A stretch of DNA of 64,000 bases from Bradymonadales bacterium (GTDB taxonomy: Bacteria > Bdellovibrionota > UBA2394). The translations under genes and the position numbers were made by a program. Position 1 is the stretch's first letter; each line of letters opens with the position of its first letter. This document shows, piece by piece, positions 39,927-63,616 of this stretch. The notes beneath the pieces are model-generated. The model had not been told where the DNA came from. It saw nothing but the letters and a program-made list of their open reading frames with translations, and made no database searches. The stretch is taken from NCBI GenBank assembly GCA_007693605.1, contig REDG01000055.1, positions 14,353 through 78,352 of the forward strand. Reading direction: 5' to 3'.

Positions 39927-41087
39927 GTGAAAGAGAGAGACATCATCGCAGCTCCTGTTTCAGATGGGTCGCGCAAATCCTTAAGTAAGACAGGCATCTA
40001 CTTTGGGCAAACTGGCCAGCCAGTGCTTGTGCTTGCAACGAGCTGTCAGGAGCTGAGCGCCCCTGTCTACGAGATTACTGATCCGGCCCCCGTTTGCGAT
40101 AGGCTCTCTGCGAGCCAACACCTCTTAGATAAAAGCTTTGTTGTCTGCTTGAAGTCTTTTTTTCAACTGGGTGGAAAGAGACTGATTGTGATGCCGATTC
40201 AGATTGAGACCGGCGTCGAAGATTTGGCTTCAGAGTATCGGACGAAGCTTCTGGGTGTTGACGGTGGCTTTGGCAATCGAACGGGCATTCATCGTTTGAG
40301 GGACTTTGAGGCCTGCGGCGACTTGTTGGCTTTCCCGCAGGCTGCGGTTGTCCTCGGATCTGAAGATCTCAGCGCGTTTTATCAGGAAGTTCAGAATTTT
40401 CTGGAACGGAGAAGCCATCATTTTTTACTGATGGATCCGCCCTGCTATACAGACTCAGAAAAGCTGAGAATTTGGGCCAGGACATTTCAGTCTGAGATGA
40501 GCGCTTTGTTTTTTCCTTGGGTTTCGGTGCCTGGCTTAGGCCTCACGCCCGCGTCCATTTTGGCGGCAGCACTGATTCAGCGGAATGATTTTCAGCATAG
40601 CATTTCGACGACACCAGCGAATCAGGTGATCGATGCCAAACTTGAGCTCCTGAAAGAGATTCCGAAGGCTGAAGTCGAGGCTCTTAATCAAGTTCATGTG
40701 AATGTCTTTAGGCGAAAGCCAAACTCGGACCTCGTTCTCTGGGGAGCCTTTACTACCTCTAAGGCCGGAGATCATCGCTCGCTCATTCACTTAAGTCGAA
40801 GCCTTTGGAGCCTGAAAGACGCCTTTGAGAGAGTCACAGAATCGCTCGTTCTTGAGGCTCGAACGGAATCCACCTGTGAAAAAATCCATCGAAGTCTTGA
40901 GGCCTTTTTAGAGAACTGTCAGCGAGAGGGACTCTTGGTCGCTCGACCTGGTCAAAAGGCTTATCGCATTGAGGTGGAGTTGATGGCACAAGGGAAAGGG
41001 CAGTGGGATTCTGGCATTCAGATTCGCGTTGATGTCGCTCTCGAAAGTGCCGACCGTTTTGTAGGATTGCAGCAGGAAATTTCGTAG
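39927..41087 (+). CDS. divergent CIS tail-sheath paralog
   Basis: Colinear with the sheath at 41902: NRTGIHRLRDF / KRTGINVFNN, FLLMDPP / FALLDCE, ALFFPWVSVPG / ACYFPWVRVYD, VNVFRRKPNSDLVLWGAFT / INLIRDFGDMGIKVYGARTLT; lacks the N-terminal PGVY motif; GTG after AAGGAGG. Confidence 0.7.
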   Translation: MKERDIIAAPVSDGSRKSLSKTGIYFGQTGQPVLVLATSCQELSAPVYEITDPAPVCDRLSASQHLLDKSFVVCLKSFFQLGGKRLIVMPIQIETGVEDLASEYRTKLLGVDGGFGNRTGIHRLRDFEACGDLLAFPQAAVVLGSEDLSAFYQEVQNFLERRSHHFLLMDPPCYTDSEKLRIWARTFQSEMSALFFPWVSVPGLGLTPASILAAALIQRNDFQHSISTTPANQVIDAKLELLKEIPKAEVEALNQVHVNVFRRKPNSDLVLWGAFTTSKAGDHRSLIHLSRSLWSLKDAFERVTESLVLEARTESTCEKIHRSLEAFLENCQREGLLVARPGQKAYRIEVELMAQGKGQWDSGIQIRVDVALESADRFVGLQQEIS

Positions 41088-41110
41088 GGCTCGCCCTACA
41101 GGCTGTAGGG
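41083..41110. promoter_or_regulatory. candidate enhancer (UAS): three GTAGGG/CCCTAC hexamers including the palindrome CCCTACAG-g-CTGTAGGG
   Basis: CGTAGGG (41083-89), CCCTAC (41094-99), TGTAGGG (41104-10), 105-130 bp upstream of the sigma54 promoter; the same CGTAGGG/TGTAGGG pair recurs at 48827-48853. Confidence 0.45.
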
Positions 41111-41213
41111 TTTTCACAACATACTCAATTGATTGAATTCAGACTTTGTCTCCCGGCTCCCCTTGTAGAGCCTTTTTTCTCGATATTGAGCCTCTTGCTG
41201 CATTGAAACTTTT

Positions 41214-41229
41214 TGGCATGCCTCTTGCT
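41214..41229 (+). promoter_or_regulatory. sigma54 -24/-12 promoter of the main CIS operon
   Basis: TGGCATG-cctc-TTGCT; one mismatch to TGGCACG-N4-TTGCW; GG/GC spacing exactly 10 nt; 40 nt upstream of ATG 41270. Confidence 0.65.
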
Positions 41230-41269: not shown

Positions 41270-41905
41270 ATGCAGTCAAAGGATTTTCTGAAATCATTAA
41301 CTCAGTTCTTAGTTCAGTTTTTGAATCGAGAACTTGAACGAGAAGGCTTCGGCAGTCGCTTTCGAGTGGAGGCGGGCTTAGAAGAAGTCAGCTCAGATGT
41401 CGACAAGAGAGGCTTCTGGAATCGTCTTGGTGGTCAAAGCCTTACTCGAGCCTTTCTACAGTCTTACTCCGTCCAGCGGATTCAGAACTCTCGAAACTCA
41501 GTTCTCAAAACAGAAGAGGTCGAGAAAGACGGAGAACGATTCTTTGTCAATCGTCGTAGCCCAGAGACCCTTGAAATCAAGTATCTTTTGGTGGGACCTT
41601 CTTTGGCCTCGAACGAAGGTCAAGAGCTCTACGCCGCCCTCTTTACAATCTTTTTTGATCACCTTCAAGTCGAGTGGTCCCGTGGGGATCAGACGGAGAC
41701 TCTTAAGCTCAATGATCTAAACGAAGAGGATGAGCCTCGAGCTCAAGCTTTACTTACAGAGCAGGGTATCTCAACGCTGCCTCTCTATTCATTTAGTGTT
41801 CGCGTGCCAATTGCGTCGGGTCGAGTGATATCTCAAGACCATCGTGTTTTGCACCGAGATCTTCAATTCAAACGAAAAACAACATCTGGAGGAAAACAAT
41901 CATGA
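41270..41905 (+). CDS. putative DUF4255 (Pvc16/Afp16 N-domain-like) tail terminator/cap protein
   Basis: About 210 aa, first gene of the operon just before the sheath as in many eCIS loci; LEIKYLLVGPS..EGQELYAALFTIFFDH resembles the DUF4255 core; moderate. Confidence 0.5.
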   Translation: MQSKDFLKSLTQFLVQFLNRELEREGFGSRFRVEAGLEEVSSDVDKRGFWNRLGGQSLTRAFLQSYSVQRIQNSRNSVLKTEEVEKDGERFFVNRRSPETLEIKYLLVGPSLASNEGQELYAALFTIFFDHLQVEWSRGDQTETLKLNDLNEEDEPRAQALLTEQGISTLPLYSFSVRVPIASGRVISQDHRVLHRDLQFKRKTTSGGKQS

Positions 41906-43044
41906 GCGAAATGACAGCGCCCGGCGTGTATACCAATATTACATCGAGCGGAAACAAACCTATTGCCTCGGTCGGATCTTCGACAGCGGCATTCATCGGA
42001 CAATCTTCACGAGGGCCTGAGAACCAAGCCACTCTCGTAACGAGCTGGGCTCAATATGAGAAGCAATTTGGGTCTTTCGGAGAATCCCAATACCTGGCCC
42101 ATGCCGTCTATGGATTCTTTGCGAACGGCGGAAGCAAAGCCTTCATCTGCAATATCGGAGCCGAAAAAGACGGACAAACCGACAATGATGTAACCGCGGC
42201 CTTAATGGGCGAAGATAAAGGTCCTGCCAAACGGACAGGCATCAATGTCTTCAACAACATTGAAGAGATCAGTCTGGTGGCTGCACCCGGAATCACTTCA
42301 CCAGAAGCCCAAGGCATTCTGATTGATCACTGCGAAAAATTAGGAGATCGATTCGCTCTTTTAGATTGTGAAGAGACCTTGCAGTCAGGGCTCGATGAGA
42401 TGTACCGACCAAAAGCATCAACCAATGCGGCTTGTTATTTTCCATGGGTACGAGTCTACGATCCCATCAAAAAAGAGAATGTCTATCAACCCCCGACGGG
42501 TTTTGTGGCTGGTCTGTATTCTCGTGTGGATTCTCAACGAGGTATTCACAAAGCGCCTGCCAATGAAACTCTTAATGGAGTGACGGGCCTCAAGTACAGT
42601 CTTACGAAAGAGGAGCAGAGCTTATTGAATCCAAGAGGAATCAATTTGATTCGAGATTTTGGGGATATGGGGATTAAAGTCTATGGGGCTCGCACGCTTA
42701 CGAATGACGCTGAGTGGAAATACATCAATGTTCGTCGACTCTTTCTCAATGTCAGAGAGAGCTTGCAAAAGGGCACGGAGTGGGCGGTTTTCGAGCCGAA
42801 CAACGAAACCCTTTGGGGAAATGTGAAGCGAAACATCGCAGCCTACCTCAAGACTCTTTGGAAGCAGGAAGCTTTGGTGGGGACCACTCCAGAAGAGGCC
42901 TTTTATGTAATTTGTGACCAAACGAATAATCCTCAAGAGTCTATCGACCAAGGGATTCTTAATGTCAGCATCGGAATCGCCCCTGTGAAACCAGCTGAAT
43001 TCGTTAGCATCACAATTCAACAAAAATACGAAGAAGATAATTAA
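41902..43044 (+). CDS. CIS/phage tail sheath protein (Afp2-like)
   Basis: N-terminal MTAPGVYTNI, AAFIGQSSRGP, GINLIRDFGDMGIKVYGARTLT, YINVRRLFLNVRESL, FYVICD; ATGA overlap with the upstream gene. Confidence 0.92.
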   Translation: MSEMTAPGVYTNITSSGNKPIASVGSSTAAFIGQSSRGPENQATLVTSWAQYEKQFGSFGESQYLAHAVYGFFANGGSKAFICNIGAEKDGQTDNDVTAALMGEDKGPAKRTGINVFNNIEEISLVAAPGITSPEAQGILIDHCEKLGDRFALLDCEETLQSGLDEMYRPKASTNAACYFPWVRVYDPIKKENVYQPPTGFVAGLYSRVDSQRGIHKAPANETLNGVTGLKYSLTKEEQSLLNPRGINLIRDFGDMGIKVYGARTLTNDAEWKYINVRRLFLNVRESLQKGTEWAVFEPNNETLWGNVKRNIAAYLKTLWKQEALVGTTPEEAFYVICDQTNNPQESIDQGILNVSIGIAPVKPAEFVSITIQQKYEEDN

Positions 43045-43068
43045 TTAAGAAATTAAGGAGTAATAGAA

Positions 43069-43491
43069 ATGGCAGAATATTTTTCAACATCTAATTTTGA
43101 GGTCAGTGTCGAAGGTCTTCAATCGAAGCAATTCAGTGAAGTTGAAGGTCTGAGGGTGAGTATTGAGAATCTTCCCTACCAAGAGGGAGCCATGCATCTT
43201 CAGCAAACCAAAAAGGGTCGTACTCGGTTCGATGACTTGGTTTTGAGAAGACGCTTTGATGGCGACAAGGAGTTTATTGGCTGGCTGCAGGAATGCTCTC
43301 AGAAGAAAGTCTTAAAGCGGAGTGGATCGATTATTCTAAAAGATGATGATCAGAAAGAAGTGCTTCGCTTTAACTTTACAGGGGCGTGGCCGGTCGCTTG
43401 GAAGGCCCCCTCCTTCACTACGAAGCCAAATGAGAATGAAATTGGAATGGAAGAAATTGTTTTGAGCGTCGAGACGCTTGAAATGGCTTAA
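43069..43491 (+). CDS. CIS tail tube protein (gp19/Afp1-like)
   Basis: 140 aa; FEVSVEGL..FSEVEGL..FDDLVLRR..FNFTGAWPVAWKAPSF typical of T4 gp19-type tube proteins. Confidence 0.9.
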   Translation: MAEYFSTSNFEVSVEGLQSKQFSEVEGLRVSIENLPYQEGAMHLQQTKKGRTRFDDLVLRRRFDGDKEFIGWLQECSQKKVLKRSGSIILKDDDQKEVLRFNFTGAWPVAWKAPSFTTKPNENEIGMEEIVLSVETLEMA

Positions 43492-43557: not shown

Positions 43558-45081
43558 ATGAGCTTAGCGACTGCGGCACGAGACATTGATATCCTTATTC
43601 GGGCTCGATATCCGATCATCTATTGCAGCTCGTTCGAAGAGGCAAGGGTAGAGCGCCTATTGGAGGAGGTGTCCATTCAGAGAAAAGCCAAGCTCGTGGC
43701 CTGGACCCGTACTCGGGGCTTCGTTGATTCCAATGAAAAATCGATTGAAAAGATCCACTCTCCTGAGAAGGCCCTCGATTTTATCTCTGAAAAGGAAGGC
43801 CGTTTTTGTTTTCTTTTAAAAGACTTTCATCCCTATCTCAAAGACCCAGGAATCATCAGAAAATTGCGGGATCTATGTCGAGATTTAAAACTGACCCAGA
43901 AAAATGTGATTCTCCTTTCGCCCTGCTTGAACATTCCGTTGGAACTCTCGAAAGAGATGGCGGTTCTAGACATGCCGCTGCCAGATAGAAAAGAGATCGA
44001 GCAAATCTACAAAAAGATTCCTGCCGAAGTGGTCAGTTCCGATGCCGACGAGCTTGATGCCTGTATTGAGGCGGCCCTCGGGCTCACGGAAGAAGAAATC
44101 GAGAATGTTTTCGCCAAATCCGTCGTGTCGAAAGGGCAGGTGAATGTGGAAACAATTTTGAGCGAAAAGAGACAGTTGGTTCAGAAGTCGGGTATTCTCG
44201 ATTTCATTCCCGTACAAGAGAGTTTTGAAAACATCGGTGGCTTAGAGAATCTGAAAAGCTGGCTCGTTAGGCGTAGAGGTGGCTTTTCTCAAGAGGCAAG
44301 AGATATTAAGCTTCCTTGCCCTCGTGGAATTCTTCTGACGGGAATCCCTGGATGTGGAAAGTCTTTGACCGCAGTATGTACTGGTGCCGCATGGAAGCTT
44401 CCTGTCTTACGGCTTGATTTGGGCAAAGTCTTTAGTGGCCTGGTAGGCTCTTCTGAAGAAAATATGCGATTGGCCATTAAGACGGCAGAGAGCGTCGCGC
44501 CTTCAATTCTGTGGATCGACGAGATTGAAAAGGGGATGGCAGGAGGTTCCTCGAGTGGAGCAAGTGATGGTGGTACAGGCTCCCGTGTTTTTGGGACCTT
44601 CTTAACTTGGATGCAAGAAAAGAAGAAACCCGTTTTTGTTCTGGCGACCGCTAACGACATTTCCGGCTTGCCACCAGAGATGCTTCGAAAGGGTCGATTT
44701 GACGAGATCTTCTTTGTGGACTTGCCCAGCGAGTCGGAGCGCTTGTCGATCTTAGAAATTCACCTCAGTAAACGATCTTGGACTGTTGAAGGCTTCTCTA
44801 CCGAAGAGTTTTTAAAGCTATCCGAGGGGTTTACCGGGGCTGAAATCGAGCAGACCCTCATTGATGCTCGATTTGATGCTTTTTTTAGAGGAGATTCCCT
44901 GACCATGTCTGGCTTGAAGGAGGCCTTTTCCTCAACAGTGCCATTGTCTCGCTCCATGTCAGAGAAGATCAATGCGCTGAGAGCTTGGGCAAAGGATCGT
45001 GCCGTGTTGGCGTCAGGTCAAAGGTTGACCGAGACAAAAATTCAAGCCGTGCGAGCGCTTGAAATTGGAGGAGGTCTGTAA
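43558..45081 (+). CDS. Ycf46-like AAA+ ATPase
   Basis: N-terminus [22 protein letters not shown] resembles Ycf46-type ATPases; Walker A GIPGCGKS, Walker [11 protein letters not shown]-terminal [14 protein letters not shown]. Confidence 0.85.
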
Positions 45082-45473
45082 TGTCTCACTTCACAGAAAT
45101 CAAAACAAAACTGAAGAATCTTGAAACAATAAAAGAGGCGCTCGACGCACTCAACCTAGACTATGAATACTCTGAGGCGCTCACGCAGGTTCGGGGTTTC
45201 TATGGAGATCATATTGCCGCTGACTTTCGAATCTCTACCGGCACCGACTATGATTTGGGTCTCCGCCGAACGGAGTCTGGAGAGTATGAGTTTGTTGCCG
45301 ATTTCGAGATGTTAAGCGCACACAAATGCGATTACAAAGCCCTGCAATCAAAGATTCAGCAGAGCTATTCAATGATTCAGGTCAAAGAAGTCTTGAAAGA
45401 GCAGGGCTACGAGCTTGGTGAAGAACAGCTCGATGAGTCTGGTAATCTTCAGATGGTGGTGTCGAAATGGTAA
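45081..45473 (+). CDS. DUF1257 (Ycf35-like) protein
   Basis: [30 protein letters not shown] is the characteristic DUF1257 N-terminus; start overlaps the ATPase stop (TAATG). Confidence 0.75.
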   Translation: MSHFTEIKTKLKNLETIKEALDALNLDYEYSEALTQVRGFYGDHIAADFRISTGTDYDLGLRRTESGEYEFVADFEMLSAHKCDYKALQSKIQQSYSMIQVKEVLKEQGYELGEEQLDESGNLQMVVSKW

Positions 45474-45661
45474 AAAAGCGAGAAATCAGAATTGTCGTGG
45501 ATCCTGAAGGCAATACCCAGATTGAGGTCCTGAACGCAGAGGGGCAGGAGTGTCTCGAGTGGACAAGAGAGCTAGAATCTAAGCTGGGAGAGGTCGCGAA
45601 GAGAGATTTAAAAGAGGCTTATTATGTTGAGAGCTCAGAGAAGCTTCACCAAGAGTCTTGA
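45467..45661 (+). CDS. DUF2997 protein
   Basis: 64 aa; IRIVVDPEGNTQIEVLNAEGQECLEWTRELESKLG matches the DUF2997 pattern; usual partner of DUF1257. Confidence 0.7.
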   Translation: MVKKREIRIVVDPEGNTQIEVLNAEGQECLEWTRELESKLGEVAKRDLKEAYYVESSEKLHQES

Positions 45662-46508
45662 GCCGCCTCATCGGACTCGCGCCTTTTTAGTCGGGGACGA
45701 CAAGTTGGTCATTACCGACATGTGGCAAAGCTGGCAGGGATCCTTTTATCTCAGTCCAGAGGGCGGACAAAAGTCTCAGAGAGTGGGAGTGAATGACTTT
45801 GGGATTTTGCGGGGTGAAGAGCCTCCCATTGATCGAAACAAGGGGACCGGAGCGGTCTATATCTTTGGATGTCCCCTGCGGTGCAAGACCTGCTACCAGC
45901 CTGAGTTCTTCGGACGCAAGGCCCGAATGGAGTTCAGTGTTTCTGACTTGGCGCGACTATTTCTGGAGCTTCAAAGGGAAGGAGCAGCGACTTTGTCTAT
46001 TGTGATGGCGACACTTCAAAAGCCTGTTGTCAAAGCACTGATCAAGGCGAAAGAGATGGGTTTGAGCATCGATTGTGTTTTGAATTATTCTGGTTTTGTT
46101 TCGTCGAAGGATCTTTCAGAAGTTCAAGATCTCTTTGAAATCTTTGTTCCTGATGTCAAAGCCTTGAGTGAAAAATATCGCAAGGCACATGCTTTGTCTG
46201 AGGGCTATACAAAGACTGCTTTAGAGGGTGTTCGATATCTTGCTGAGAGCCAAAAGAACTTGATTGTGAGGCATCTCGTCTTGTCTCCTTTGCCAGATCC
46301 TCTGTCAGACATTCGGATTCTGTTTGATTGGATGAATCGGCAGGCCTTTCGTTTTCCTTTGTCAATTTTAACTCAGTACCTCTGCCCCATCGAGAAAAGG
46401 CTGTTTAGCTTGAGTGAAGAGCTTCTGAGTCAGCTACACGAACTCTCTGATCAATTTAGAGTTCCAATCTTTTTACAAGGAAGTGGAGACTATGATTACA
46501 AACTTTGA
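45624..46508 (+). CDS. radical SAM enzyme (activase-like); start uncertain
   Basis: CX3CX2C cluster motif GCPLRCKTCYQPEFF; about 290 aa; overlaps the neighbouring genes at both ends. Confidence 0.65.
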   Translation: MLRAQRSFTKSLEPPHRTRAFLVGDDKLVITDMWQSWQGSFYLSPEGGQKSQRVGVNDFGILRGEEPPIDRNKGTGAVYIFGCPLRCKTCYQPEFFGRKARMEFSVSDLARLFLELQREGAATLSIVMATLQKPVVKALIKAKEMGLSIDCVLNYSGFVSSKDLSEVQDLFEIFVPDVKALSEKYRKAHALSEGYTKTALEGVRYLAESQKNLIVRHLVLSPLPDPLSDIRILFDWMNRQAFRFPLSILTQYLCPIEKRLFSLSEELLSQLHELSDQFRVPIFLQGSGDYDYKL

Positions 46509-47565
46509 AATTCAAGTGCAGGGAATCTCAACAGACCGAGATCGGCTGCAGCAATTGAACTCTCCCACAGAGATGCTTGTAGAGAAGAGCCTCAATTCAG
46601 TGAGTGCCGCTTGGTTGGTTTATCCTGCTTCTTTCGAAGACTCATTGTTTTCCACAGATGAAGATTTTTTGTTTCCAGCAGCGATGCGTCTTATGACGCA
46701 GCTTCAAGAGCCCGAGTCGAATGACATTTCTGAAAGCATTTTCTTTCAAGGGCTACTTTGCTCCTACTCCATTCAAGCAAGTGGTTGTTTGGTGCTTGAG
46801 TATCGAGACCCTTTGATTGTGGCGACCGAGGTCGATCGGTCAGAGGCCTGGCAAAAGACCTCCCTGAAAGAGGTTGTTTCGCAAGCACTGCGAAATGCTT
46901 CAGCCGAAAGAGGGGGCCGAAGCCTCAAGGTGAGTTTTCAAGATGAGGCGGAGTTTCCAATTGAAAGCCTTACCAATATCGGTCAAACAGACTTTGAGTT
47001 TGTAAGAGATTTAGCTGAAAAGTTCGGCTTTAGATTTTTCTTCCATCACGCTGAAAAAGGTTCTGACGAAGTGACATTCTTCAAGCCGAATTTCTCTCGA
47101 CTTCCTGACTCAGAGCTAGCCTATGAAGACATCCAAAGCACGGCTTCGATTAAAATCTCTACTTTAAAGGCTCCCAACACGGTCTTTGTGCAGAGAGGGA
47201 CGGGCGTTGAAGAAGTTGGGATTGAGACCTATCAAAATCAGTTTTCGAAGTGCTTTGAGAAGAAGGTTGCGCTGAGAGAAAGGCTCGGCATTGAGCTAAA
47301 TTCCCATCTTTATTGTCCGGGGATATCTCAGCGAGAGGCACAGGAGATGGCTCAGGGGGAGTTTCTGGGTCGAATTCTTGAAGGGGATCGGTTGCACTTC
47401 CAGTCAGAGAGGGTTTTTCCCATTGGCAGTCTGATAAAGGTCAATCCTTCAGACGATTCGATTGTCACGGGCAGAAGGTTTCATGGAGTCTATCTGATCG
47501 ATCGTGTTCGGTCTCGGCTTGATGGATTTCGTTGGCTACACGAATACGAAGGAGTGAGACCATGA
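46492..47565 (+). CDS. gpD / VgrG-N (gp27-like) baseplate hub protein
   Basis: GQTDFEFVRDLAEKFGFRFFFHHAEKGSDEVTFFKP is the late-control-D/VgrG signature; no gp5-type OB or beta-helix follows. Confidence 0.75.
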   Translation: MITNFEIQVQGISTDRDRLQQLNSPTEMLVEKSLNSVSAAWLVYPASFEDSLFSTDEDFLFPAAMRLMTQLQEPESNDISESIFFQGLLCSYSIQASGCLVLEYRDPLIVATEVDRSEAWQKTSLKEVVSQALRNASAERGGRSLKVSFQDEAEFPIESLTNIGQTDFEFVRDLAEKFGFRFFFHHAEKGSDEVTFFKPNFSRLPDSELAYEDIQSTASIKISTLKAPNTVFVQRGTGVEEVGIETYQNQFSKCFEKKVALRERLGIELNSHLYCPGISQREAQEMAQGEFLGRILEGDRLHFQSERVFPIGSLIKVNPSDDSIVTGRRFHGVYLIDRVRSRLDGFRWLHEYEGVRP

Positions 47566-48708: not shown

Positions 48709-48780
48709 GGGAGTGTCGCTAAAGGCCCATCTGCTTCGGCTGCTCGGTTGGACCACTGGGCCAGCAAAGGCGATGAAATG
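48709..48780. repeat. interspersed intergenic repeat, copy E (inside the CIS locus)
   Basis: GGGAGTGTCGCTAAAGGCCCATCTGCTTCGGCTGCTCGGTTGGACCACTGGG immediately after the gp25 stop. Confidence 0.7.
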
Positions 48781-48816
48781 TGTTGTCTTTTCTTGTCTGG
48801 CACTTTCGTCTCCCGA

Positions 48817-48856: not shown

Positions 48857-48914
48857 CCCCAACACAGGGCTTCTTTGAAATGGCCGAAAACCCCCTTCTG
48901 GGGGCTTTTCGGGA

Positions 48915-48930: not shown

Positions 48931-48944
48931 TTATCCCATGAGCG

Positions 48945-55958: not shown

Positions 55959-56704
55959 CAGATTTTGGATTAGTTCGGGCGACTGTGACTGACAATGAAG
56001 ACCCCGATCTTTTGGGTCGAGTTCGGGTGCGATACCAGTGGCTTGGAGGGCCGAGCGCCCAGCAACAAAGCGCATGGGCTCGTGTTGCTCGTCCGCAAAG
56101 TCATGCAGGGGCGGGCGATTGGTTTCTGCCTGAAGTGGGCGATGAGGTGTTGGTTGGATTTGAGTTCAATCGAGTCGAGGCTCCCATTGTTCTTGCCTCG
56201 CTCTTTACAGATCAATCGGCACCGCCCAAATCAGATTTGGAGGGTGATCACAATCAGAACGGAAAGAACAATCTTCGCTTTCTAAGAACCAAGGCGGGGC
56301 ACCTTTTGTGCTTCGACGATCTAGAAGGTCGAGAATCGATTCGCCTACAAGACTCGAAAAACAATCGTCTTCTAATAGAGAGCCACTCGGGCAAGGTGAC
56401 ATTGGAGGACAGTTCCGGAAATCGACTCTGCTTGGACAATGAAAAGATTAGTCTGGAGGATAAGAATGGGAACGGTTTCGAGTTGCAGGGGGCTGAGATA
56501 AGGATTCGCTCTAGTTCAAGTGTCAAGATTGAGACGGCCTCTCGTGTGGAGATTGGGAAGGGCGCCTCTGAGGCCTTAGTGAAGGGAGACAGCTTTATGC
56601 AGCTATTCAATGCGCACACTCACCCAACGCCTCGCGGTCCGTCGGGGCCACCGCAGGTTCCTATGACTCCCGCCCAACTTTCACAGAAGGTGAAAACCGC
56701 ATGA
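55955..56704 (+). CDS. gpV / gp5-type spike protein (OB fold plus beta-helix)
   Basis: GLVRATVTDNEDPDLLGRVRVRYQW..AWARVARP..GDWFLPEVGDEVLVGFEFNRVEAPIVLASLF, then repetitive beta-helix and HTHPTP near the C-terminus. Confidence 0.85.
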   Translation: MTDFGLVRATVTDNEDPDLLGRVRVRYQWLGGPSAQQQSAWARVARPQSHAGAGDWFLPEVGDEVLVGFEFNRVEAPIVLASLFTDQSAPPKSDLEGDHNQNGKNNLRFLRTKAGHLLCFDDLEGRESIRLQDSKNNRLLIESHSGKVTLEDSSGNRLCLDNEKISLEDKNGNGFELQGAEIRIRSSSSVKIETASRVEIGKGASEALVKGDSFMQLFNAHTHPTPRGPSGPPQVPMTPAQLSQKVKTA

Positions 56705-58509
56705 CTGATTGGATGAGATATGTTGAGACCGAGCTGGCCGGCTTAGATTCAGATTTTTCGAAGGAGCTGAAGCCGTCCCTCGGAGCCCTGAAGGACTTCG
56801 ATTTCGATGATGAAATGCTGACTCGATTTGAGCGAATCAGAGAAGTTTTCTCCCTTTCGAAGGGGGAGATGAGGCTCGTGATTCTGGCCTTTGTCGACCG
56901 AGCCTTGTCCCATCAAGTCTTGGGGCCGATCAGGTCTCTTGATGATCTTTGTTTGTACTCGACTGAGCATACGATTCAACTCGATTCAAGAGATTCATTG
57001 AAAAGGCTTTTCAGCGAAAATATCCAGTTGCGAGATTCTCTGTTTTACTTCTTAGCCAACAGAGATTGCTGCCCAGTCTCATTGAAAAAGACTCCTGCAA
57101 AGAGCGTGTTCGGGATGTCAAAATTCCCAGTGGATAAGATTCTAAGGCTGGCCGCTGGAGGCGCTAAAGTAGAGATACTCACAGAAGACCCATTGCTAAT
57201 GGGGGCTCGTTTGGGTGGAGAAAATGTTTTTGAACTTACAGAGCCGACAGGGGCCGTTGAAGAAGTAAAGCTTTTCAAAGACTTGTTTGGGGCCATTGTT
57301 TGGTGTTCTCGAATTGACAAGCCTGAGGCTCCCATTTTTTCAATGGTTGATATTTGTATCACTTCAGTCGACTCTCGCAGGCAGCCCTCGGCGCAAGAGT
57401 ACCGCTTTAAATTTACTGACACTGAGTTTGAAAAGATTGACGCGATAAACTTGTGGCAAGCTGAGACTGAGGCCGCCAAGCTTCGATGTTCCACGGAAGA
57501 TTTGAAACGAGTATCCACCGTTTTTTCTTACGGGCTGACACAAATCCGTCCGATCGTCCAAGAGATGAAGGCCGAGCAGAGAGAGGCCTGGAGTTTCGAA
57601 GAGATGGCTCGGCTCTGTCGAAAGAGAAACTCCATTGAGCTTGAGGCTTATGCGCGAAGAATCGAAAGTCGATACGACTGGGAAGACCTGGTCCTTCCAC
57701 CTCCTTGCTTGTTGCAGCTCAAGGAAGCTGAGCGATTTATTCTTACTCGCCGCTCACGAAAAGAGCTGTCTCGGAGACACTCTCGTGGACAGGGTGTCAG
57801 TCTGGTCTTTGAAGGCCCCAGTGGAACTGGAAAGACGATGGCAGCGGAAGTTCTCGCAAAGTCTTTGGGCTTAGATCTCTATCAAGTCAATCTCTCTAAG
57901 CTGACGAGCCAGTTTATTGGAGAAACGGAAAAGAATCTGAGTGCCGTCTTTCGGGCGGCGCAGGATGCCGCAGGCATTCTCTTCTTCGACGAAGGAGAGT
58001 CTCTGTTTTCGAAGAGAAGCCAGGGCGCGACGGTTCAAGACAAATATAGCAATCTAGAGGTGAATCATCTCTTGCAAGAACTTGAGAGCTTCGAAGGCAT
58101 TGTCGTAATTTCGACGAATCTAGGCGAGAACATCGATTCAGCCTTTCTGAGAAGAATCAATTTCGAACTGCGCTTTCCCCGACCCAATGGAGGGGCTCGG
58201 CAGAAGATTTGGGAGCTTCATTTAAAGAAAGACTGTGGCGATTTGAGTGATATTGACTATCACGCGCTTTCAGAGCTTCCGTTGACGGGCGGGTTTATAC
58301 GAAATGTGGTCGATCGGGCGTCGGCCGCCGCACTTTATGAATCTCGACCGGTCTCCATGAAAGATCTGATGCATGCGATCAAGAGAGAGTATCAGAAAGT
58401 GAAGTGGCCCATTCAGCGGGAGCAGTTTGATAGTAAATATTGGAAGCTCGTATCTCCGGACTGGGATGAAAATCAAGCACGACGACGCTTAAAGGACTGG
58501 GCCGCATGA
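56701..58509 (+). CDS. AAA+ ATPase, Afp15-like
   Basis: Long N-terminal domain, then Walker A GPSGTGKTMAAE, Walker B ILFFDEGESLF, LLQELE..VVISTNL..AFLRRI. Confidence 0.9.
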   Translation: MTDWMRYVETELAGLDSDFSKELKPSLGALKDFDFDDEMLTRFERIREVFSLSKGEMRLVILAFVDRALSHQVLGPIRSLDDLCLYSTEHTIQLDSRDSLKRLFSENIQLRDSLFYFLANRDCCPVSLKKTPAKSVFGMSKFPVDKILRLAAGGAKVEILTEDPLLMGARLGGENVFELTEPTGAVEEVKLFKDLFGAIVWCSRIDKPEAPIFSMVDICITSVDSRRQPSAQEYRFKFTDTEFEKIDAINLWQAETEAAKLRCSTEDLKRVSTVFSYGLTQIRPIVQEMKAEQREAWSFEEMARLCRKRNSIELEAYARRIESRYDWEDLVLPPPCLLQLKEAERFILTRRSRKELSRRHSRGQGVSLVFEGPSGTGKTMAAEVLAKSLGLDLYQVNLSKLTSQFIGETEKNLSAVFRAAQDAAGILFFDEGESLFSKRSQGATVQDKYSNLEVNHLLQELESFEGIVVISTNLGENIDSAFLRRINFELRFPRPNGGARQKIWELHLKKDCGDLSDIDYHALSELPLTGGFIRNVVDRASAAALYESRPVSMKDLMHAIKREYQKVKWPIQREQFDSKYWKLVSPDWDENQARRRLKDWAA

Positions 58510-59717
58510 GGTTGAAGTCGAACAGAAGTCAGTCCAAGCGATTTGAGGCTTTTGAGCTGATTCATCAGCAAAGACAGCAAGCTCGTGAAGATGAGGTCTT
58601 TCAATTGAATTTGAATCGAGCTTTTGAGCAGGGGAAGAAAGACTTCAAAAAAGTGGAGAGCTTGATCTCCGCTTGGGAGACCCTAAGCGAAGATCATCGG
58701 TTGGATTTGAGTCTGACTGAAGAGCTTTTGTTGTTGGCCTATTGGAGGGCGAAAGCAAAGGGGACTTCTAAGACTTTGAGTCTAGGGGATCTCTATGGAG
58801 TTCACATCTGGGTTCTTGTCTCTTTGGCTTCTCAAGACAGACACTCCTTGTCGAAGAGGGGGGAGCTGCAGACAAAATCCGAGCTTTCTCGCCGAGCTTT
58901 TATGGGTTCTGAGAAGCTCGTCGAACGCCTTCAACCCGAGAGAGAGAGCTTTCTGGAACCTTCGTTTGCAGGGATTTGGGATGATTTGAGTTTAGCTCGC
59001 GTTCACTTTGCTGACTGTTTTGATGAGATGCAGGTTGCGTTTAGGTCCAAGAATATCGATGAAAGCTTTTTGTTTTGGCGACGGGTAGAGATGAGTCTTT
59101 GGTTGACCTCTGCTGTGTTTTTGGTGGGTCGAGCGGCTCTCTACACCAGCTTGGGCCCCATTGGCTGGAGCCTCTTGGCGGCGGATTTGATAGCGAGCAC
59201 AGCCTTTTTGCTGAAGGCCTCTCATGAATTAGAGGCGCATCAAACCACCGGCTCAGTCGCAAGAGTGCAAAACTTTAGAGAGGTCTTTGGGTCGGGTGGG
59301 GGTGCCATGGAAGGCTTCTTGTGGGCTCATCTTTCGCTCGGGCTCGGGACGCTTCTGGTTGGCTCTCGATCTCTCAGGCGACTGCTCAGTTGGCAATCTC
59401 AAAAATCCGGCCTTCAAGGCCATAGCTTTAGACGGCTGGCAGCCTTTCAGAGGCTTCACTACCGGAAGGGTCTCGTGCGGCAGGCCGAATGGGAGTCTTT
59501 TGCGAGAGGCTTCCAGCGAGCGAACGATACATTTGATTTCATTCGCACTACAGGATTTCTATACCAAGATGTCTCTAGACTCATGAACGAAGGAGAACTC
59601 AGTGTTCGAGACCTTCTCAGAAGAGCGCGGAGATACAACATCTACAGAAAGACGGTCTATCAACAGATCAAAAGTCTTTCGAGACTAGCTGCAGGAGGTG
59701 CATATGTTGCCCGGTAA
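58506..59717 (+). CDS. hypothetical helical protein with hydrophobic segments (tape-measure or membrane-protein candidate)
   Basis: 403 aa; helical N-half; hydrophobic stretches MSLWLTSAVFLVGRAALYTSLGPIGWSLLAADLIASTAFLL and FLWAHLSLGLGTLLVG; ATGA overlap with the ATPase gene. Confidence 0.4.
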   Translation: MRLKSNRSQSKRFEAFELIHQQRQQAREDEVFQLNLNRAFEQGKKDFKKVESLISAWETLSEDHRLDLSLTEELLLLAYWRAKAKGTSKTLSLGDLYGVHIWVLVSLASQDRHSLSKRGELQTKSELSRRAFMGSEKLVERLQPERESFLEPSFAGIWDDLSLARVHFADCFDEMQVAFRSKNIDESFLFWRRVEMSLWLTSAVFLVGRAALYTSLGPIGWSLLAADLIASTAFLLKASHELEAHQTTGSVARVQNFREVFGSGGGAMEGFLWAHLSLGLGTLLVGSRSLRRLLSWQSQKSGLQGHSFRRLAAFQRLHYRKGLVRQAEWESFARGFQRANDTFDFIRTTGFLYQDVSRLMNEGELSVRDLLRRARRYNIYRKTVYQQIKSLSRLAAGGAYVAR

Positions 59718-60171
59718 TCAAAATCATCGAGTGAGTTTTCGCTTTGAAGGATCTGAAGAGGCCTTGTTTGAAGGGGTTGTCATTAGTGGGATTGGAACAC
59801 AGATCGCGCCTGTTTCTGTTGGCCAGGGGGCCCACCGCCATCAAGTCGCCATGGAAGATCCCGGTTCACAAAGCTTTTCTATTGAGTACGACTTGGATGC
59901 CGAACGAGGGAAACAGACAGAATTGTTGATGTCTTGGTACCGAATGCTGCGATCAGCTCATGCACTCGGATTGTATCAATCTTCGCAAAACAAAGAATAC
60001 TATCAAATGCGCAGGACGGCGAGCATTGAGATTTCTTTGAGCACCAATAAGTTGAGATACGAACTGAGTGGAGTGTTTCCGATCTCTTGGAAAGTGAAGT
60101 CTCTTTCGGAGGGCAAGCGGGCTCGTATGCTTTGGGAGTTTAGTTTTGAAGAAGGAGACAAGATTTTATGA
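59704..60171 (+). CDS. second tail-tube-family protein (Afp5-like)
   Basis: VSFRFEGSEEALFEGVVISGIG and RYELSGVFPISWKVKSLSEG..WEFSFEEG parallel the tube at 43069; ATG 59704 after AGGAGG. Confidence 0.55.
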   Translation: MLPGNQNHRVSFRFEGSEEALFEGVVISGIGTQIAPVSVGQGAHRHQVAMEDPGSQSFSIEYDLDAERGKQTELLMSWYRMLRSAHALGLYQSSQNKEYYQMRRTASIEISLSTNKLRYELSGVFPISWKVKSLSEGKRARMLWEFSFEEGDKIL

Positions 60172-61631
60172 ATCAGTTTGCGGCCGCAGCGACCCAGTCC
60201 TCACGGCAGACGGAGAGAGATCTTAGTAAGGGAGTCATTCTCGCCTGGGCGGATTACAGCCTTCGCTTTGATGAGTGCTCGGATATAGGAGAGGCCCTCA
60301 CGACTTATCCTCTCTTGTCCAAGACCAAGCCGCGTTTAGGCACGCCAGACCCTGAAGCCCTGCGGCAACCTGACAAGGACGGATATCTGAGACCTAGTGC
60401 GATGAAAGACTATGTCGCCCCATTGGCCACAAAGTGGATCCAATGCTTAGCGCCGGGCCGACAGTCCCCTTCCATCCGCTTGAGGGTAGATGCAGGAAGT
60501 TTGACGAATCAGAAGGCCTTTGAGGATTTGTATAAGCTGCAAGAGGCCGCTCTTTCACTTGGAGTTCGACTGGGCCAGACACAGGGATCATCAACGCGCA
60601 AGATCTCACATCTTCAGTTCTGCAGTCGAGAAGCCTTGAGTTTAGATTTTCAGCTCATCAACGCCTTTCCTTCGGCGATTGAGTTTATCAATGTCGATGA
60701 AGAGGCTCGGCAACAACTTGTAGTTGAGCTGAGCTTCGATGAGGTTGTCATCGACTCTATTGAAGCAGAGGGGGCTTCAGACTCTGGGGTTTCATCATCA
60801 TTCGTTTTTTCAGCGGACGATGAACGGCTGTCCTTGTTCAAACAAGAATCTGATTTGAGAGGATATTTTTCGGTGGGCGTTAAGGCGGTGGAAGATGTGA
60901 AGATTCGGAGCAGAAACGAGGAGCTTCTCTTAGATTTATACGACCTTGATTTTCGCTATGGATGTAGTGATCTAGAGATCCGCAGCTTTGTCAGTGTTGA
61001 GACGGATCGAACGGCTAAGAGGCTTCAAGGGATAGAAAACTTGAGTGAATCTCTCTCTCAGGGCGATCGTCGAAGACATCAGGCCCATTCCTTTCCAGGA
61101 GAAGTTGGGCTTCGACATCGTTCGTGGGGGAACTTCGTGGAGATTCTCTCATTTAAGGCCATTTTGTTTGGGGAACTTTTGGGCATTGATTCCGAAAATT
61201 CCGAGGGCTTGCAGAATCGAATTGAAAGCCTATTTCTGCCCATGATCTATGCTCGGAATGCGTTTGCAAACCTCGGTGTAAGCTCTAGGGCGTTGCCAGA
61301 GGTTCCAACAGATGAGATTTTAAAGACTCATCTGTTGAAGGAGAAAGAGTCAAAGGCCTTGGTGCTGCCTCTACACTCGGAGCTGAAGTACCCTCAGCAG
61401 TTTTTTGCAGCGTCCAGGGGTGGTGTTAAGTCCGTTCTCTGGGATCGTGGTCGGCATTTTCATACACCGGTTCGAGTGCTTTTGCCTGAGGGACGATCGT
61501 TCTGTGGGACCATTCATGACTGGAGTGTCCGCTACTTTGACTTTGATCAGAATGGAGAGGCTCAGAGAGCAGAGATCCATTTGAATATCTTGGGAATTCA
61601 CGAATTGAATGCAAGAGAGGAGAGCCTCTGA
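60168..61631 (+). CDS. hypothetical protein with N-terminal tube-like domain (tube initiator/adaptor candidate)
   Basis: LDFQLINAFPSAIEFINVDEEARQQLVVELSFDEVVI resembles the tube C-terminal strand pattern; 487 aa; ATGA overlap. Confidence 0.35.
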   Translation: MNQFAAAATQSSRQTERDLSKGVILAWADYSLRFDECSDIGEALTTYPLLSKTKPRLGTPDPEALRQPDKDGYLRPSAMKDYVAPLATKWIQCLAPGRQSPSIRLRVDAGSLTNQKAFEDLYKLQEAALSLGVRLGQTQGSSTRKISHLQFCSREALSLDFQLINAFPSAIEFINVDEEARQQLVVELSFDEVVIDSIEAEGASDSGVSSSFVFSADDERLSLFKQESDLRGYFSVGVKAVEDVKIRSRNEELLLDLYDLDFRYGCSDLEIRSFVSVETDRTAKRLQGIENLSESLSQGDRRRHQAHSFPGEVGLRHRSWGNFVEILSFKAILFGELLGIDSENSEGLQNRIESLFLPMIYARNAFANLGVSSRALPEVPTDEILKTHLLKEKESKALVLPLHSELKYPQQFFAASRGGVKSVLWDRGRHFHTPVRVLLPEGRSFCGTIHDWSVRYFDFDQNGEAQRAEIHLNILGIHELNAREESL

Positions 61632-62206
61632 TGTTGAGCATCAAGACCTTACAAAAATCAAAGACACAAAAGACATACGAGCTTGATGTGAAGTTAAGCT
61701 CAATTGGATGCCATATCGAAGAGGAGCTTTTGTTTAAGGACGGGATGGCTCGCGAGCGAGTCTATTCTAGGGGCGATGAGGACGGAGTTCCTATAAGCCA
61801 TGAAGCACGGGATATATCCTATTGGGGAGGGGCTGCCGTCGTCCCAAATCACACGAATCTGCCAGAAGCCTCGCATCTCAGCTTGCAATACGAGCGGCGA
61901 GGTCGAGTTTCAATGCCCAAATATCAAATTGAATTTGAAATCGGTCCAGATCGCTATTCTGAAGTGGCGGGGGTGATCCAAGAGATTAGGCACTCTCCAT
62001 TGGGCCGATCGGAGACTCGGGGAGCCATGAAAGAGCTTGTTTCCGTCTCAGTGGGAGAGGGGGACAAGCTCCATCTCATTTCGATGGGGATTCTTACAAG
62101 CCTTCATTTAAAACTCATTCGGGGGCAGCGCCGAAGTCTTGGTGGTCAAGGGCTTTTAATGATACAAGATCAGAGATTGAACTCTCAGTTTTTGAGTGCC
62201 ATATAA
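61631..62206 (+). CDS. hypothetical protein (CIS operon member)
   Basis: 191 aa; start overlaps the upstream stop (TGATG); no family recognised. Confidence 0.3.
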   Translation: MLSIKTLQKSKTQKTYELDVKLSSIGCHIEEELLFKDGMARERVYSRGDEDGVPISHEARDISYWGGAAVVPNHTNLPEASHLSLQYERRGRVSMPKYQIEFEIGPDRYSEVAGVIQEIRHSPLGRSETRGAMKELVSVSVGEGDKLHLISMGILTSLHLKLIRGQRRSLGGQGLLMIQDQRLNSQFLSAI

Positions 62207-63616
62207 ATGTTAGGAGTAAGCTGCGCGATGACCTATTTTGTTTTTCTCGTTAGTCTGATGAGTACTTTTAGTTTGGCAGCGGCCACGCCCTCGCCGGTAG
62301 CCAACGGATTGTATCAGGTCGCGACAGGGGTGTGTCATGACGGTGAAGGAAATCTGACGGCCAAGCCAGACTATGCTCGCAAAAAGGTGATTGAAAGCTT
62401 CGTTGTGGATGAGGAATTCGTAAGCGTTCAGATGGGTAGGGAGCGGCACTGGTGTCGAGTAACGGAAAAGTATCGAAGGCTCAAGACTTCAGAGTATGCC
62501 CCGATGCGTGGAGGCTCCCCAGACTATTTGGCTGACTGGGGCCAGTTGATGTTGTTGAGGCTTGAATCGGTGGGCTTCGAGAATTGCACAGAAAAGCAAC
62601 AGGTAGAAATTCAAGAGCGTTATCGTCACTATCTCAATGAATCGACAGTTCTTCGCATTGCCTTTGGGCTCGGACTCTACGGAGATGATCGTTACTCTCA
62701 AGCTCTTCCGGCGCTTTGGTCGAGCCTTGTTCAAGAGGATTTCAAGAGGGATAGTATCCGAAGTTCAGACATTTACCTCTTTGAGTTTTTTGCGGATCAA
62801 AGCTCGTCAGAAGCTAGCTCCGAGCGATCGCGAGAGGCGAGGCAGTCGCTCGATGAGCGACTGCGATCAGGATCAGGAGATTGCCCTTTCATTGAGACAT
62901 TTGTGGTTGTGCATCCCGTCACGCCTTGGCCGGAGATGAAAGTGGCAGCGGGTAGTTACGAATCTCAAGGGCTCGGATGTTTTGGGCAGCCGCCGATTCG
63001 GGGCAGCGAACTTCAAGGGCATATTGCTGAGAGTTTAGTGCTGCAAGTCGATGCGAATCAGGGAATGGAGCTTGAAGTTCGGGCTGAGTCTTGTCGCCTC
63101 CGGATGAAGTTTGACGGAGGCAGCGCAAAGAGATCGCCTTCTCGCGAGGGCTTGGAGGCTCTGGTTTTCTCACAAACTGATTCCGATGGCTTAGAAGTAT
63201 CTTGTGACGGACTAGTGAAAGAAGAGGCAGACTCAAAGACCGCCTCGTTGATCAGAGGCTTTTCAGGTGTTCAGTTGCAATGGCTTCGACCGAGCAATCC
63301 CTATGCCTTCTGGCGATATGGGAGTTTCTTGGGAATGGACTGGGAAGAGCCAGCATCCTGGGGACTTCGCCTTGTGAGTGGAGGTAGAGATTTTCTGTTG
63401 GACGGAATTTCCGAAGATCGATGTGAGATTCCGGAACTGTTTAGAGTTAGCCCGAGCGACTCGAATCAAAAACTCATTCCTGAGTTGCCAGCCTTTCAAA
63501 CGAAAGTCGTTAGAGCCGACGCATCTGAAATCCATTGGGTTTCATCAGAGTCTGCGGCAAAGACAGGGGAGTCCCCTAGTTTTTGGCACAGGCTCCGGAG
63601 CTTTTTTGTCAGGTAG
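62207..63616 (+). CDS. secreted hypothetical protein, last gene of the CIS operon
   Basis: Signal peptide MTYFVFLVSLMSTFSLAAA; ATG immediately after the upstream TAA; Cys-containing, no family recognised. Confidence 0.4.
   Translation: MLGVSCAMTYFVFLVSLMSTFSLAAATPSPVANGLYQVATGVCHDGEGNLTAKPDYARKKVIESFVVDEEFVSVQMGRERHWCRVTEKYRRLKTSEYAPMRGGSPDYLADWGQLMLLRLESVGFENCTEKQQVEIQERYRHYLNESTVLRIAFGLGLYGDDRYSQALPALWSSLVQEDFKRDSIRSSDIYLFEFFADQSSSEASSERSREARQSLDERLRSGSGDCPFIETFVVVHPVTPWPEMKVAAGSYESQGLGCFGQPPIRGSELQGHIAESLVLQVDANQGMELEVRAESCRLRMKFDGGSAKRSPSREGLEALVFSQTDSDGLEVSCDGLVKEEADSKTASLIRGFSGVQLQWLRPSNPYAFWRYGSFLGMDWEEPASWGLRLVSGGRDFLLDGISEDRCEIPELFRVSPSDSNQKLIPELPAFQTKVVRADASEIHWVSSESAAKTGESPSFWHRLRSFFVR

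Follow-up and report, generated by a model that had tools for sequence, protein, structure and literature searches.

In this study, we analysed a stretch of 64,000 nucleotides from a Bradymonadales bacterium (assembly GCA_007693605.1, contig REDG01000055.1), which is called the window throughout. Positions 39927-63616 of the window harbor a locus for a contractile injection system (CIS) that is ordinary in kind and unusual in design, with three sets of accessory genes set among those for sheath, tube and baseplate. All long open reading frames (ORFs) of this region lie on the + strand and were numbered g1-g25 (Table 1); about 24 of them are co-oriented, mostly overlapping CIS genes. The products were identified by Pfam, PHROGs and PDB-profile searches, by one-pass hidden Markov model searches and by hhalign, in which profiles were aligned with profiles of families built from 80 canonical loci. 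At nine gene junctions the overlap is ATGA (-4) and at three it is -1, the remainder being short overlaps or gaps. The nearly continuous ATGA/TAATG coupling claimed in an earlier reading of the sequence (the original prediction) is thus correct in that most junctions overlap, but it is interrupted by some short gaps and by 236 bp between g11 and g13. A second larger gap (182 bp) separates g1 and g2. An ORF at 48713-48988 was considered and rejected; it is probably not a gene, being uncalled in an identical Logan contig, lacking a full-length ortholog and overlapping a conserved sigma-54-like element. The start of g25 was placed at 62228 according to the gene call in L006 (L numbers denote the contigs and loci compared), and the likely start of g10 is the ATG at 47562.

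The locus encodes a complete CIS core, composed of a sheath and a sheath paralog, tube, hub, spike, gp25, J, a gpI-like protein, an Afp15-type AAA+ protein and Cis7-like and tube-like initiators. The components by which the CIS superfamily is recognized (contractile sheath and inner tube; gp25, J, hub and spike) are present, and g20 is the Afp15-type AAA+ protein expected of an extracellular CIS (eCIS); the sequence marks of type VI secretion systems (T6SSs) and those of R-type tailocins or prophage tails are absent. Nearly every identity given in the original prediction was upheld by Pfam, PHROGs, PDB profiles and hhalign. For the main sheath g3, the closest solved structure in profile searches is Cis2 of CIS-Sc (8bky/9gtp, E 4e-142), the cytoplasmic CIS of Streptomyces coelicolor. 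The claim of a second sheath was confirmed for g1 by Pfam, by the only PHROGs match of the locus (tail sheath, E 2e-14) and by hhalign (99.8% to the sheath family). This paralog is kept in L090, L001 and L002 and, by analogy with Afp4, may be a sheath-baseplate adaptor. Hub (g9) and spike (g19) are separate genes 8.4 kb apart that match the two parts of one fused VgrG-like family: g9 aligns with the N-terminal part of the fused Cis8 family (hhalign 98.8%; Pfam Phage_GPD at 30.1 bits, exactly the cutoff) and g19 with the C-terminal part (99.8%). A profile of g13 orthologs matched Cis11 of CIS-Sc in the PDB (9gtp_1K, E 8e-34) and also AlgoCIS, Pvc11, All3317 and Afp11. The calls for hub, spike, gp25, J, gpI-like and Afp15-like proteins were thus borne out by Pfam, PDB profiles and hhalign. 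The homologs of g20 are eCIS ATPases; its clade lacks the N-terminal PF22977 domain that nearly all other eCIS ATPases among the listed matches have, and the N-terminal 340 residues are clade-specific (window protein and orthologs P0125-P0134). Two earlier assignments stood only in part. A gp19-type tube and two further tube-like proteins had been proposed: g4 is clearly the tube, g23 aligns with the CIS_tube+LysM family (hhalign 84%, E 7e-6; no LysM domain detected by Pfam), and g22 is weakly tube-like, with an AlgoCIS baseplate chain as PDB match (7aeb_Y, E 0.47), which makes it a candidate Cis5/Cis1b-like tube initiator. The proposed DUF4255-like (Afp16-type) cap, g2, is a weak assignment; the protein had no Pfam, PDB or PHROG match, and its gene lies directly upstream of the sheath gene, as in some canonical loci. 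PDB profile searches of g2, g14, g23 and g22 returned nothing or only matches with E>0.4.

Table 1. Genes and putative regulatory elements of the CIS locus (window positions).
Feature	Position	Strand	Basis or remark
g1, divergent sheath paralog, 386 aa	39927-41087	+	Pfam Phage_sheath_1 E 2.6e-8
Terminator-like hairpin and T-run just after g1	41155-41172	+	consensus match only
Sigma-54-like -24/-12 element TGGCATGCCTCTTGCT	41214-41229	+	40 nt before g2 ATG
g2, candidate cap/tail terminator, Cis16/Pvc16_N-like	41270-41905	+	hhalign 28.6%, E 6e-4, full length
g3, main sheath, 380 aa, minimal form	41902-43044	+	Pfam Phage_sheath_1 and Phage_sheath_1C
g4, inner tube, gp19 type	43069-43491	+	Pfam Phage_T4_gp19 E 5.8e-26
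g5, single-ring AAA+ protein	43558-45081	+	Pfam AAA E 1.2e-25
g6, DUF1257 (Ycf35-type)	45081-45473	+	Pfam E 1.5e-17
g7, DUF2997 protein	45467-45661	+	Pfam E 1.6e-13
g8, small radical-SAM enzyme	45624-46508	+	Pfam Radical_SAM E 3.5e-10; CPLRCKTC (CxxxCxxC) motif
g9, baseplate hub, gp27/gpD-like, N-terminal half of VgrG-type protein	46483-47565	+	
g10, pentapeptide-repeat protein	47532-48335	+	Pfam Pentapeptide and Pentapeptide_4
g11, gp25/TssE-like wedge protein	48295-48708	+	Pfam GPW_gp25 E 2.2e-19
Sigma-54-like element TGGCATACGACTTGCG	48915-48930	+	14 nt before g13 ATG, inside the 236-bp gap
g13, baseplate J, gp6/Cis11/TssF-like	48945-50687	+	hhalign 100%
g14, gpI/Cis12-like wedge protein, TssG analogue	50684-51274	+	hhalign 93% to canonical Tail_P2_I families
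g15, TssK/receptor-binding-protein-like, 505 aa	51271-52788	+	predicted beta-sandwich shoulder, helical neck, jelly-roll head
g16, small FHA-like protein	52785-53291	+	Pfam Yop-YscD_cpl E 0.0033 (weak)
g17, inner-membrane protein, predicted FHA-TM-vWA-TM-FHA (TM, transmembrane)	53263-54972	+	
g18, lipoprotein	54972-55958	+	lipobox LSAC; lipobox Cys kept in 5/5 orthologs
g19, spike, gp5/gpV OB domain and beta-helix	55955-56704	+	Pfam Phage_base_V E 2.4e-21
g20, Afp15/Cis15-type AAA+ protein	56701-58509	+	Pfam AAA E 9.9e-25
g21, hydrophobic segments	58506-59717	+	position kept in L088, L089, L091, L093, L094
g22, weakly tube-like	59698-60171	+	Pfam gp19 E 0.0095
g23, Cis7-like protein	60168-61631	+	CIS_tube-type domain at residues ~301-430, long N-terminal extension
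g24, poorly conserved	61631-62206	+	~20% identity among positional orthologs
g25, signal-peptide protein	62228-63616	+	no ortholog in other loci

Upstream of the locus, the window contains a flagellar operon (10-28 kb) and then housekeeping genes up to 39.8 kb, and the identical Logan contig extends 2.3 kb past the window end with DoxX genes and small unknown genes. The earlier claim that capsid, portal, terminase, lysis and integrase genes are absent was borne out for the window and also for these 2.3 kb, where no head, terminase or lysis gene followed. Holin, endolysin or other lysis genes were not found in or adjoining the locus by Pfam and flank inspection, and neither a tape measure, a fibre chaperone nor phage regulatory or integration genes were detected in the locus or its flanks (Pfam, PHROGs). 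Because of the flagellar and housekeeping flanks and the lack of head, portal, terminase, integrase and lysis genes, this CIS belongs to the chromosome of a flagellated diderm and is not a prophage. A diderm host agrees with the flanks of the relatives, which encode lipopolysaccharide-heptose genes (L001), ExbBD genes (L002) and lipoproteins. Decay of a prophage tail region, or of an R-type tailocin, to a remnant that no longer functions is a very improbable origin of the locus. It would agree with the descent of all core genes from phage tails and with a Phage_L5_gp82-domain gene just upstream; however, the frames are intact and tightly coupled, the gene order is kept across divergent relatives under purifying selection, and an Afp15-type ATPase is present. 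In addition, the subtype is absent from viral contigs: no subtype-specific gene occurs in 80 IMG/VR contigs and the best sheath match there has 51% identity, which argues against a prophage origin. The Phage_L5_gp82-domain gene itself (39157-39828, - strand) is divergently oriented about 100 bp upstream of g1, also encodes an Ada Zn-binding domain and was not seen beside the locus in relatives; its product could be a regulator or a DNA-repair-type protein.

The core is most similar to those of lineage II eCIS and cytoplasmic CIS, and CIS-Sc (subtype IId, to which cytoplasmic CIS of Streptomyces and Chloroflexota belong) provides the nearest solved structure. With CIS-Sc the locus shares the closest solved sheath and J, the small gpI-like Cis12, and the lack of a conventional long fibre and of a typical tape measure. 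However, CIS-Sc belongs to an actinomycete whereas the host here is a flagellated diderm, and the sheath here is a minimal 380-aa form. Subtype IId has one contiguous Afp8/VgrG gene (Chen 2019), while here this gene is split, its parts are non-adjacent and the gene order is permuted, so that the locus does not conform to IId. CIS-Sc encodes, beside its baseplate genes, a dedicated membrane protein, CisA, that is needed for firing (PMC12237407); in place of CisA, the present locus has the FHA protein g16, the FHA-TM-vWA-TM-FHA protein g17 and the lipoprotein g18. A protein with a TssK/receptor-binding protein (RBP) fold, a second AAA+ protein with DUF1257, DUF2997 and radical-SAM partners, and a pentapeptide protein are further additions relative to CIS-Sc.

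A split gp27/gp5 has been described for subtypes IIa-c, and Afp12/13/14 are absent or divergent in lineage II (PMC6899500). The locus shares both traits with IIa-IIc, together with subtype-specific extra genes and the Afp15-type ATPase. Since they were described by Chen 2019, the split of hub and spike and the missing Afp12/13/14, which had been listed as departures from the canonical layout, are not novel, whereas the separation of about 8 kb between hub and spike and the permutation of the genes are unusual. The predicted location of the initiator genes after the ATPase was confirmed, with g22 and g23 lying 3' of g20 in a permuted order. Lineage II subtype-specific genes carry no recognizable domains (Chen 2019, PMC6899500), whereas the extra genes here carry AAA+, DUF1257, DUF2997, radical-SAM, pentapeptide, FHA, vWA and lipoprotein features. 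The non-adjacent hub and spike, the initiators after the ATPase and the ATPase without PF22977 also distinguish the locus from IIa-IIc, and neither these three features nor this gene order are described in the literature searched. No link of eCIS-type loci to DUF1257/DUF2997, radical-SAM or FHA proteins was found there, and pentapeptide-repeat proteins appeared only in T6SS papers. We consider the locus to represent a rare and conserved subtype that is apparently undescribed.

The sheath g3 has thousands of homologs, the closest of which is 93% identical, and in seven related contigs (L090, L001, L002/L093, L094, L088, L089 and L091) the gene order from g1 or g2 to g23 is kept with every insert included. 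These contigs come from different metagenomic samples, and at least six of them are independent. The three non-canonical inserts of the original prediction are therefore real, and their gene-for-gene conservation indicates that they are part of the system. Identity to the window proteins amounts to 74-93% for the sheath g3 (where the gene is covered), 62-82% for the AAA+ protein g5, which is the second most conserved, 40-71% for g6 and g7, 45-55% for the spike g19 and the ATPase g20, and 23-55% for baseplate and periphery; g21-g24 mostly gave no tblastn match and are about 16-31% identical in alignments of positional orthologs. Thus g5-g7 surpass the baseplate proteins in conservation, which means that the accessory AAA+ module is constrained more strongly than the majority of the structural genes. 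Other genes illustrate how rare the subtype is. For g17, 18 relatives (E<=1e-3) were found among 1.84 billion representative proteins; every homolog with a recovered neighbourhood sits at the same position in this locus type, and one more distant homolog lies on a 2-kb contig with uninformative context. J-type orthologs numbered three in a word search, and an alignment scan with J retrieved one 4-kb contig from JGI metagenomes. A scan of GTDB genomes with g13 returned no relatives, the nearest sheath in GTDB species representatives is 52% identical, and g5-g8, g10 and g15-g18 are all absent from the 80 canonical loci with GTDB-representative sheaths. The named sheath relatives are 'Deltaproteobacteria'/Myxococcota metagenome-assembled genomes (MAGs). 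In a Spirochaetales MAG (L021:860-5370; sheath 47% identical), sheath and tube are followed by a 447-aa gene, a 157-aa gene (neither product with a Pfam match), a DUF1257 gene and a pentapeptide-protein gene, which implies that the association of DUF1257 and pentapeptide proteins with CIS is older than the close clade. Separately, Myxococcota/Kofleriaceae MAGs (L007-L020) encode sheaths 47-52% identical to g3, and tblastn detected no gp25, spike or J within 10 kb either side of them; this hints at another divergent CIS layout.

The first insert, g5-g8, lies after sheath and tube. The AAA module of g5 (residues 220-440) is nearest to the D2 domain of p97/Cdc48 in the PDB (E 2e-44) and its first 210 residues had no match in the PDB search; the earlier label 'Ycf46' could not be verified. 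Its partner g6 is present in all relatives that cover the region as well as in L021. Among NCBIfam models, g8 is nearest to those of PFL, NrdG and further glycyl-radical activases, below the cutoff in every case; its sequence suggests a glycyl-radical-activase/NrdG-like class. The pentapeptide-repeat protein g10, which forms the second insert, is kept in every relative covering the region and has no counterpart in canonical loci. The very high conservation of g5-g8, their position, the unfoldase-type AAA core and the activase-type radical-SAM enzyme lead us to propose that g5, with g6-g8, would remodel or disassemble a polymer, for example the contracted sheath, or mature a component. At the hub or spike, g10 may act in a manner analogous to TagA/B, which are pentapeptide-repeat proteins of Burkholderia T6SSs. 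A role in defence was also considered and rejected because the PADLOC matches are generic or weak (generic IetA-type AAA similarity, and weak matches to BrxA and PDC-M09A, both above E 0.001); the similarity of both AAA+ proteins to anti-phage IteA/IetA is generic to the AAA core and far below the family cutoffs.

It is unlikely that the accessory genes are hitch-hikers or that they form systems of their own, such as a module for signalling or defence inserted in a CIS operon. Such an origin would fit DUF2997-DUF1257 pairs that occur beside a cyanobacterial ferredoxin gene with no CIS in the described context (PMC4284462), the combination of FHA and vWA domains as a known stand-alone signalling module (ArnA/ArnB, the top Foldseek match of g17), and the entry of foreign genes into the operon in L001. 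However, the three modules keep their position in seven contigs although the surrounding structural proteins are at 23-55% identity, and g5-g7 rank with the best conserved genes here. Furthermore, g17 relatives are extremely rare and those with recovered context all lie in this locus type, DUF1257 and pentapeptide proteins also follow sheath and tube in the Spirochaetales contig, and PADLOC finds no defence-system membership.

The protein encoded after the wedge genes, g15, is central to the question of how the particle is deployed. Structure prediction had been suggested for the product of this gene, and its AlphaFold2 model (7 sequences, pLDDT 74.6) has a TssK/RBP-like fold. In a Foldseek search of the PDB the top six matches are all TssK (5y0e, E 2.5e-8; 6n38, E 1e-6), while the head alone matches CBM35, BcsB and C1q-type jelly rolls. 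Against BFVD, the model matches phage tail fibre, minor tail and receptor-binding proteins at E 1.6e-8 and weaker. The TssK shoulder is related to the RBP shoulders of siphophages, and for this reason the double match of g15 to TssK and phage RBPs is expected. The weak similarity of the N-terminus to Anabaena Cis19, a trimeric 'crown' protein (E 0.074), agrees with this. The earlier statement that the locus has no recognizable tail fibre does not hold, since g15 is in fibre position and its predicted fold matches both TssK and tail-fibre/RBP proteins. These matches bear on a classical eCIS or tailocin, in which particles would be released by lysis or otherwise and would attach to target cells by means of g15 as a short receptor-binding fibre, the FHA, membrane and lipoprotein genes would regulate production or release, and g5-g8 would aid assembly or cargo loading. 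We regard this alternative as improbable, although it has to be taken seriously: the core resembles that of an eCIS and includes an Afp15-type ATPase and possibly an Afp16-type cap, the evidence from the fold is symmetric (tail-fibre/RBP models at E 1.6e-8 and a CBM35/C1q-like jelly-roll head), and g15 is encoded exactly where eCIS loci encode fibres (PMC12237407). In contrast, no lysis gene lies in or adjoining the locus, the membrane module is embedded, translationally coupled and kept in every relative covering the region, and the closest solved relative is not released (PMC10066040).

This membrane module, g16-g18, is embedded between the wedge and spike genes and joined to them by ATGA/TAATG overlaps. 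The weak YscD-type FHA match of g16 recurs in the orthologs of L088, L089 and L094, and an N-terminal amphipathic helix is conserved. The AlphaFold2 model of g17 (16 sequences, pLDDT 81.4) consists of an N-terminal helix, an FHA-like sandwich (57-117), a hydrophobic segment (~122-142), a beta-sandwich and vWA domain (148-403), a long TM helix (406-438) and a C-terminal FHA domain (467-557). Its vWA domain matched ArnAB, an archaeal FHA/vWA complex (8s05, top match, E 1.6e-7), integrin beta and 4fx5 in Foldseek, and its FHA domain matched Ki67 (TM-score 0.82). The first hydrophobic segment is followed by AxA-like residues, and two cysteines of the putative periplasmic domain are nearly invariant; these sequence features suggest that the vWA domain is periplasmic. 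No homolog of the lipoprotein g18 occurs in canonical loci. The FHA domains might read phosphothreonine or, by analogy with SctD of type III secretion systems, be structural docking modules.

Taken together, we favour, with modest confidence, a cell-bound CIS that is docked to the envelope and not released. The run gp25-J-I-TssK/RBP-FHA-g17-lipoprotein-spike is coupled and invariant across relatives, and a physical chain from wedge to envelope is its simplest reading. The particle would assemble in the cytoplasm, and its baseplate would dock to the envelope of the producer. The wedge (gp25-J-I, TssE-F-G-like) would carry trimers of g15, the head of which would contact the cytoplasmic FHA-type domains of g16 and g17; g17 would span the inner membrane and place its vWA domain in the periplasm, where the lipoprotein g18 would complete the envelope complex. 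Potentially, the system fires outward through the envelope as a T6SS does, or into the membrane of the producer itself as a stress-triggered death device similar to CIS-Sc/CisA, with a slight preference on our side for the outward direction. The envelope anchoring inferred in the original prediction is strengthened, though not proven, by the TssK-like g15, the FHA-TM-vWA-TM-FHA layout of g17 and the lipobox of g18.

Three precedents, the T6SS, CIS-Sc and the thylakoid-anchored CIS (tCIS), make such docking plausible. With T6SS i-iii the locus shares a common logic: gp25/J/I (TssE/F/G-like) are combined with a TssK/RBP-fold protein, with proteins that carry FHA domains, and with a lipoprotein and a protein of the inner membrane, to which an extra AAA+ protein and an accessory pentapeptide protein are added. 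Accessory proteins known from T6SSs include TagH/FHA proteins, lipoproteins and pentapeptide TagA/B (PMC13584744). However, the locus encodes no sequence homolog of any T6SS-specific protein. The T6SS has a TssB/C sheath and an Hcp tube, whereas a single phage-type sheath and a gp19-type tube are encoded here, and g5 is single-ring and p97-D2-like rather than Clp/Hsp100-like as ClpV is. Neither the TssJLM nor the TssNOPQR membrane complex had a Pfam or NCBIfam match in the locus, and g17 and g18 are at most analogous to such a complex. CIS-Sc is fibre-less and cytoplasmic and its firing is CisA-dependent (PMC12237407). The Anabaena tCIS (subtype Ib) is a cell-bound CIS that is anchored by baseplate-peripheral proteins; it belongs to a different lineage, has the canonical Afp gene order, is anchored through Cis11/12 extensions and a TM-bearing Cis13 (PMC8894136), and lacks all three accessory modules.

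Several observations weigh against envelope docking. The fold of g15 fits phage tail-fibre/RBP models as well as TssK, its head is CBM/jelly-roll-like as is typical of receptor binders, and a weak-threshold Pfam scan gave no TssK signal in seven g15 orthologs. Hallmarks of eCIS are retained, namely the Afp15-type ATPase and the possible Afp16-type cap. Pfam and NCBIfam searches found no TssJ, TssL, TssM, ClpV or TssA, and no Ser/Thr kinase or phosphatase was found near the locus that would serve FHA domains as phosphothreonine readers. The membrane topology assigned to g17 derives from its hydrophobic segments and a model of low confidence at the first TM segment, and the roles proposed for g5-g8 and g10 are entirely conjectural. 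Across the window, sigma-54 motifs are no more numerous than expected by chance, and in general the mode of action of a CIS is not reliably readable from sequence (PMC12998442).

A more far-reaching reading, which we put forward only tentatively and consider rather doubtful, is that of an independently evolved, T6SS-like, envelope-anchored and recyclable machine on a lineage II eCIS core. It would comprise its own membrane complex, a TssK-like connector, an FHA-based assembly switch, and g5-g8 disassembling or maturing the sheath-tube polymer. That the machine is re-usable is speculation based only on the second, highly conserved, unfoldase-like AAA+ protein. If this reading is true, uncultured diderm bacteria would possess a CIS mode beyond the four that are recognized (T6SS, eCIS, thylakoid-anchored and cytoplasmic), or what could be called a new 'T6SS subtype'. 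How a phage tail became a cell-bound machine is an open evolutionary question, for which the clade offers a compact test case: an eCIS-type core with fixed TssK/RBP, FHA, vWA membrane and lipoprotein genes is the sort of intermediate expected for convergence on a T6SS-like anchor. The locus also provides the first structural-machine context for the widespread, uncharacterized DUF1257/DUF2997 pair (Ycf35 family), and it connects a contractile machine with an activase-type radical-SAM enzyme and with a second AAA+ protein, which is of unfoldase type. Should g5-g8 recycle or modify sheath and tube, this would be new CIS biochemistry that could be useful for engineered programmable injection systems. 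The accessory genes thus give concrete, testable hypotheses on envelope anchoring and sheath/tube processing.

Transcription of the CIS locus may be sigma-54-dependent, as suggested by two sequence elements that occupy the only two sizeable intergenic gaps of the locus (Table 1). A similar element precedes the g2 ortholog in L001, and similar elements precede g13 in L090 and L001; sigma-54 activator genes adjoin the locus in L001 and L088. Because of the window-wide motif count, the case for sigma-54 draws on position and conservation only. In L001 (16902-19360), gp25 and J are separated by two inserted genes, a Methyltransf_21 gene and one on the minus strand that encodes 603 aa. This site corresponds to the gap at window positions 48709-48944 that contains the second sigma-54-like element, and it therefore looks like a hotspot or an operon boundary. 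Elsewhere in the window, a sigma-54-like element (TGGCATCGAGATTGCT, 5372-5387) lies 15 nt upstream of a TPR/YfiO-like gene at 5402, and a FleQ-like sigma-54 activator is encoded at 8210-9751.

The proteins of the 3' end are less well defined. No Pfam, PHROGs, PDB or hhalign match was obtained for g21; its position and composition are the sole grounds for regarding it as a candidate tape-measure-like or membrane protein. A concatenated query of g21, g24, g25 and g18 against PDB profiles returned nothing. The product of g24 could be cargo or a terminal component. In L093 (20957-21524; relative GCA_963169695.1), an 824-aa gene, cut off by the end of the retrieved sequence, takes the place of g24; the 3' end thus varies between loci, as expected for cargo or effector genes. 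Since relatives lack g25, it is doubtful that this gene belongs to the system.

Two further pairs of genes upstream of the locus were noted. Adjacent ORFs at 33689-35257 and 35397-37037 (both - strand) encode proteins of 522 and 546 aa with no Pfam match. Directly upstream of the flagellin gene, the flagellar operon encodes a GNAT acetyltransferase (20487-23350) and an MptE/Maf-like protein (23554-25119), which are candidates for flagellin glycosylation or modification.

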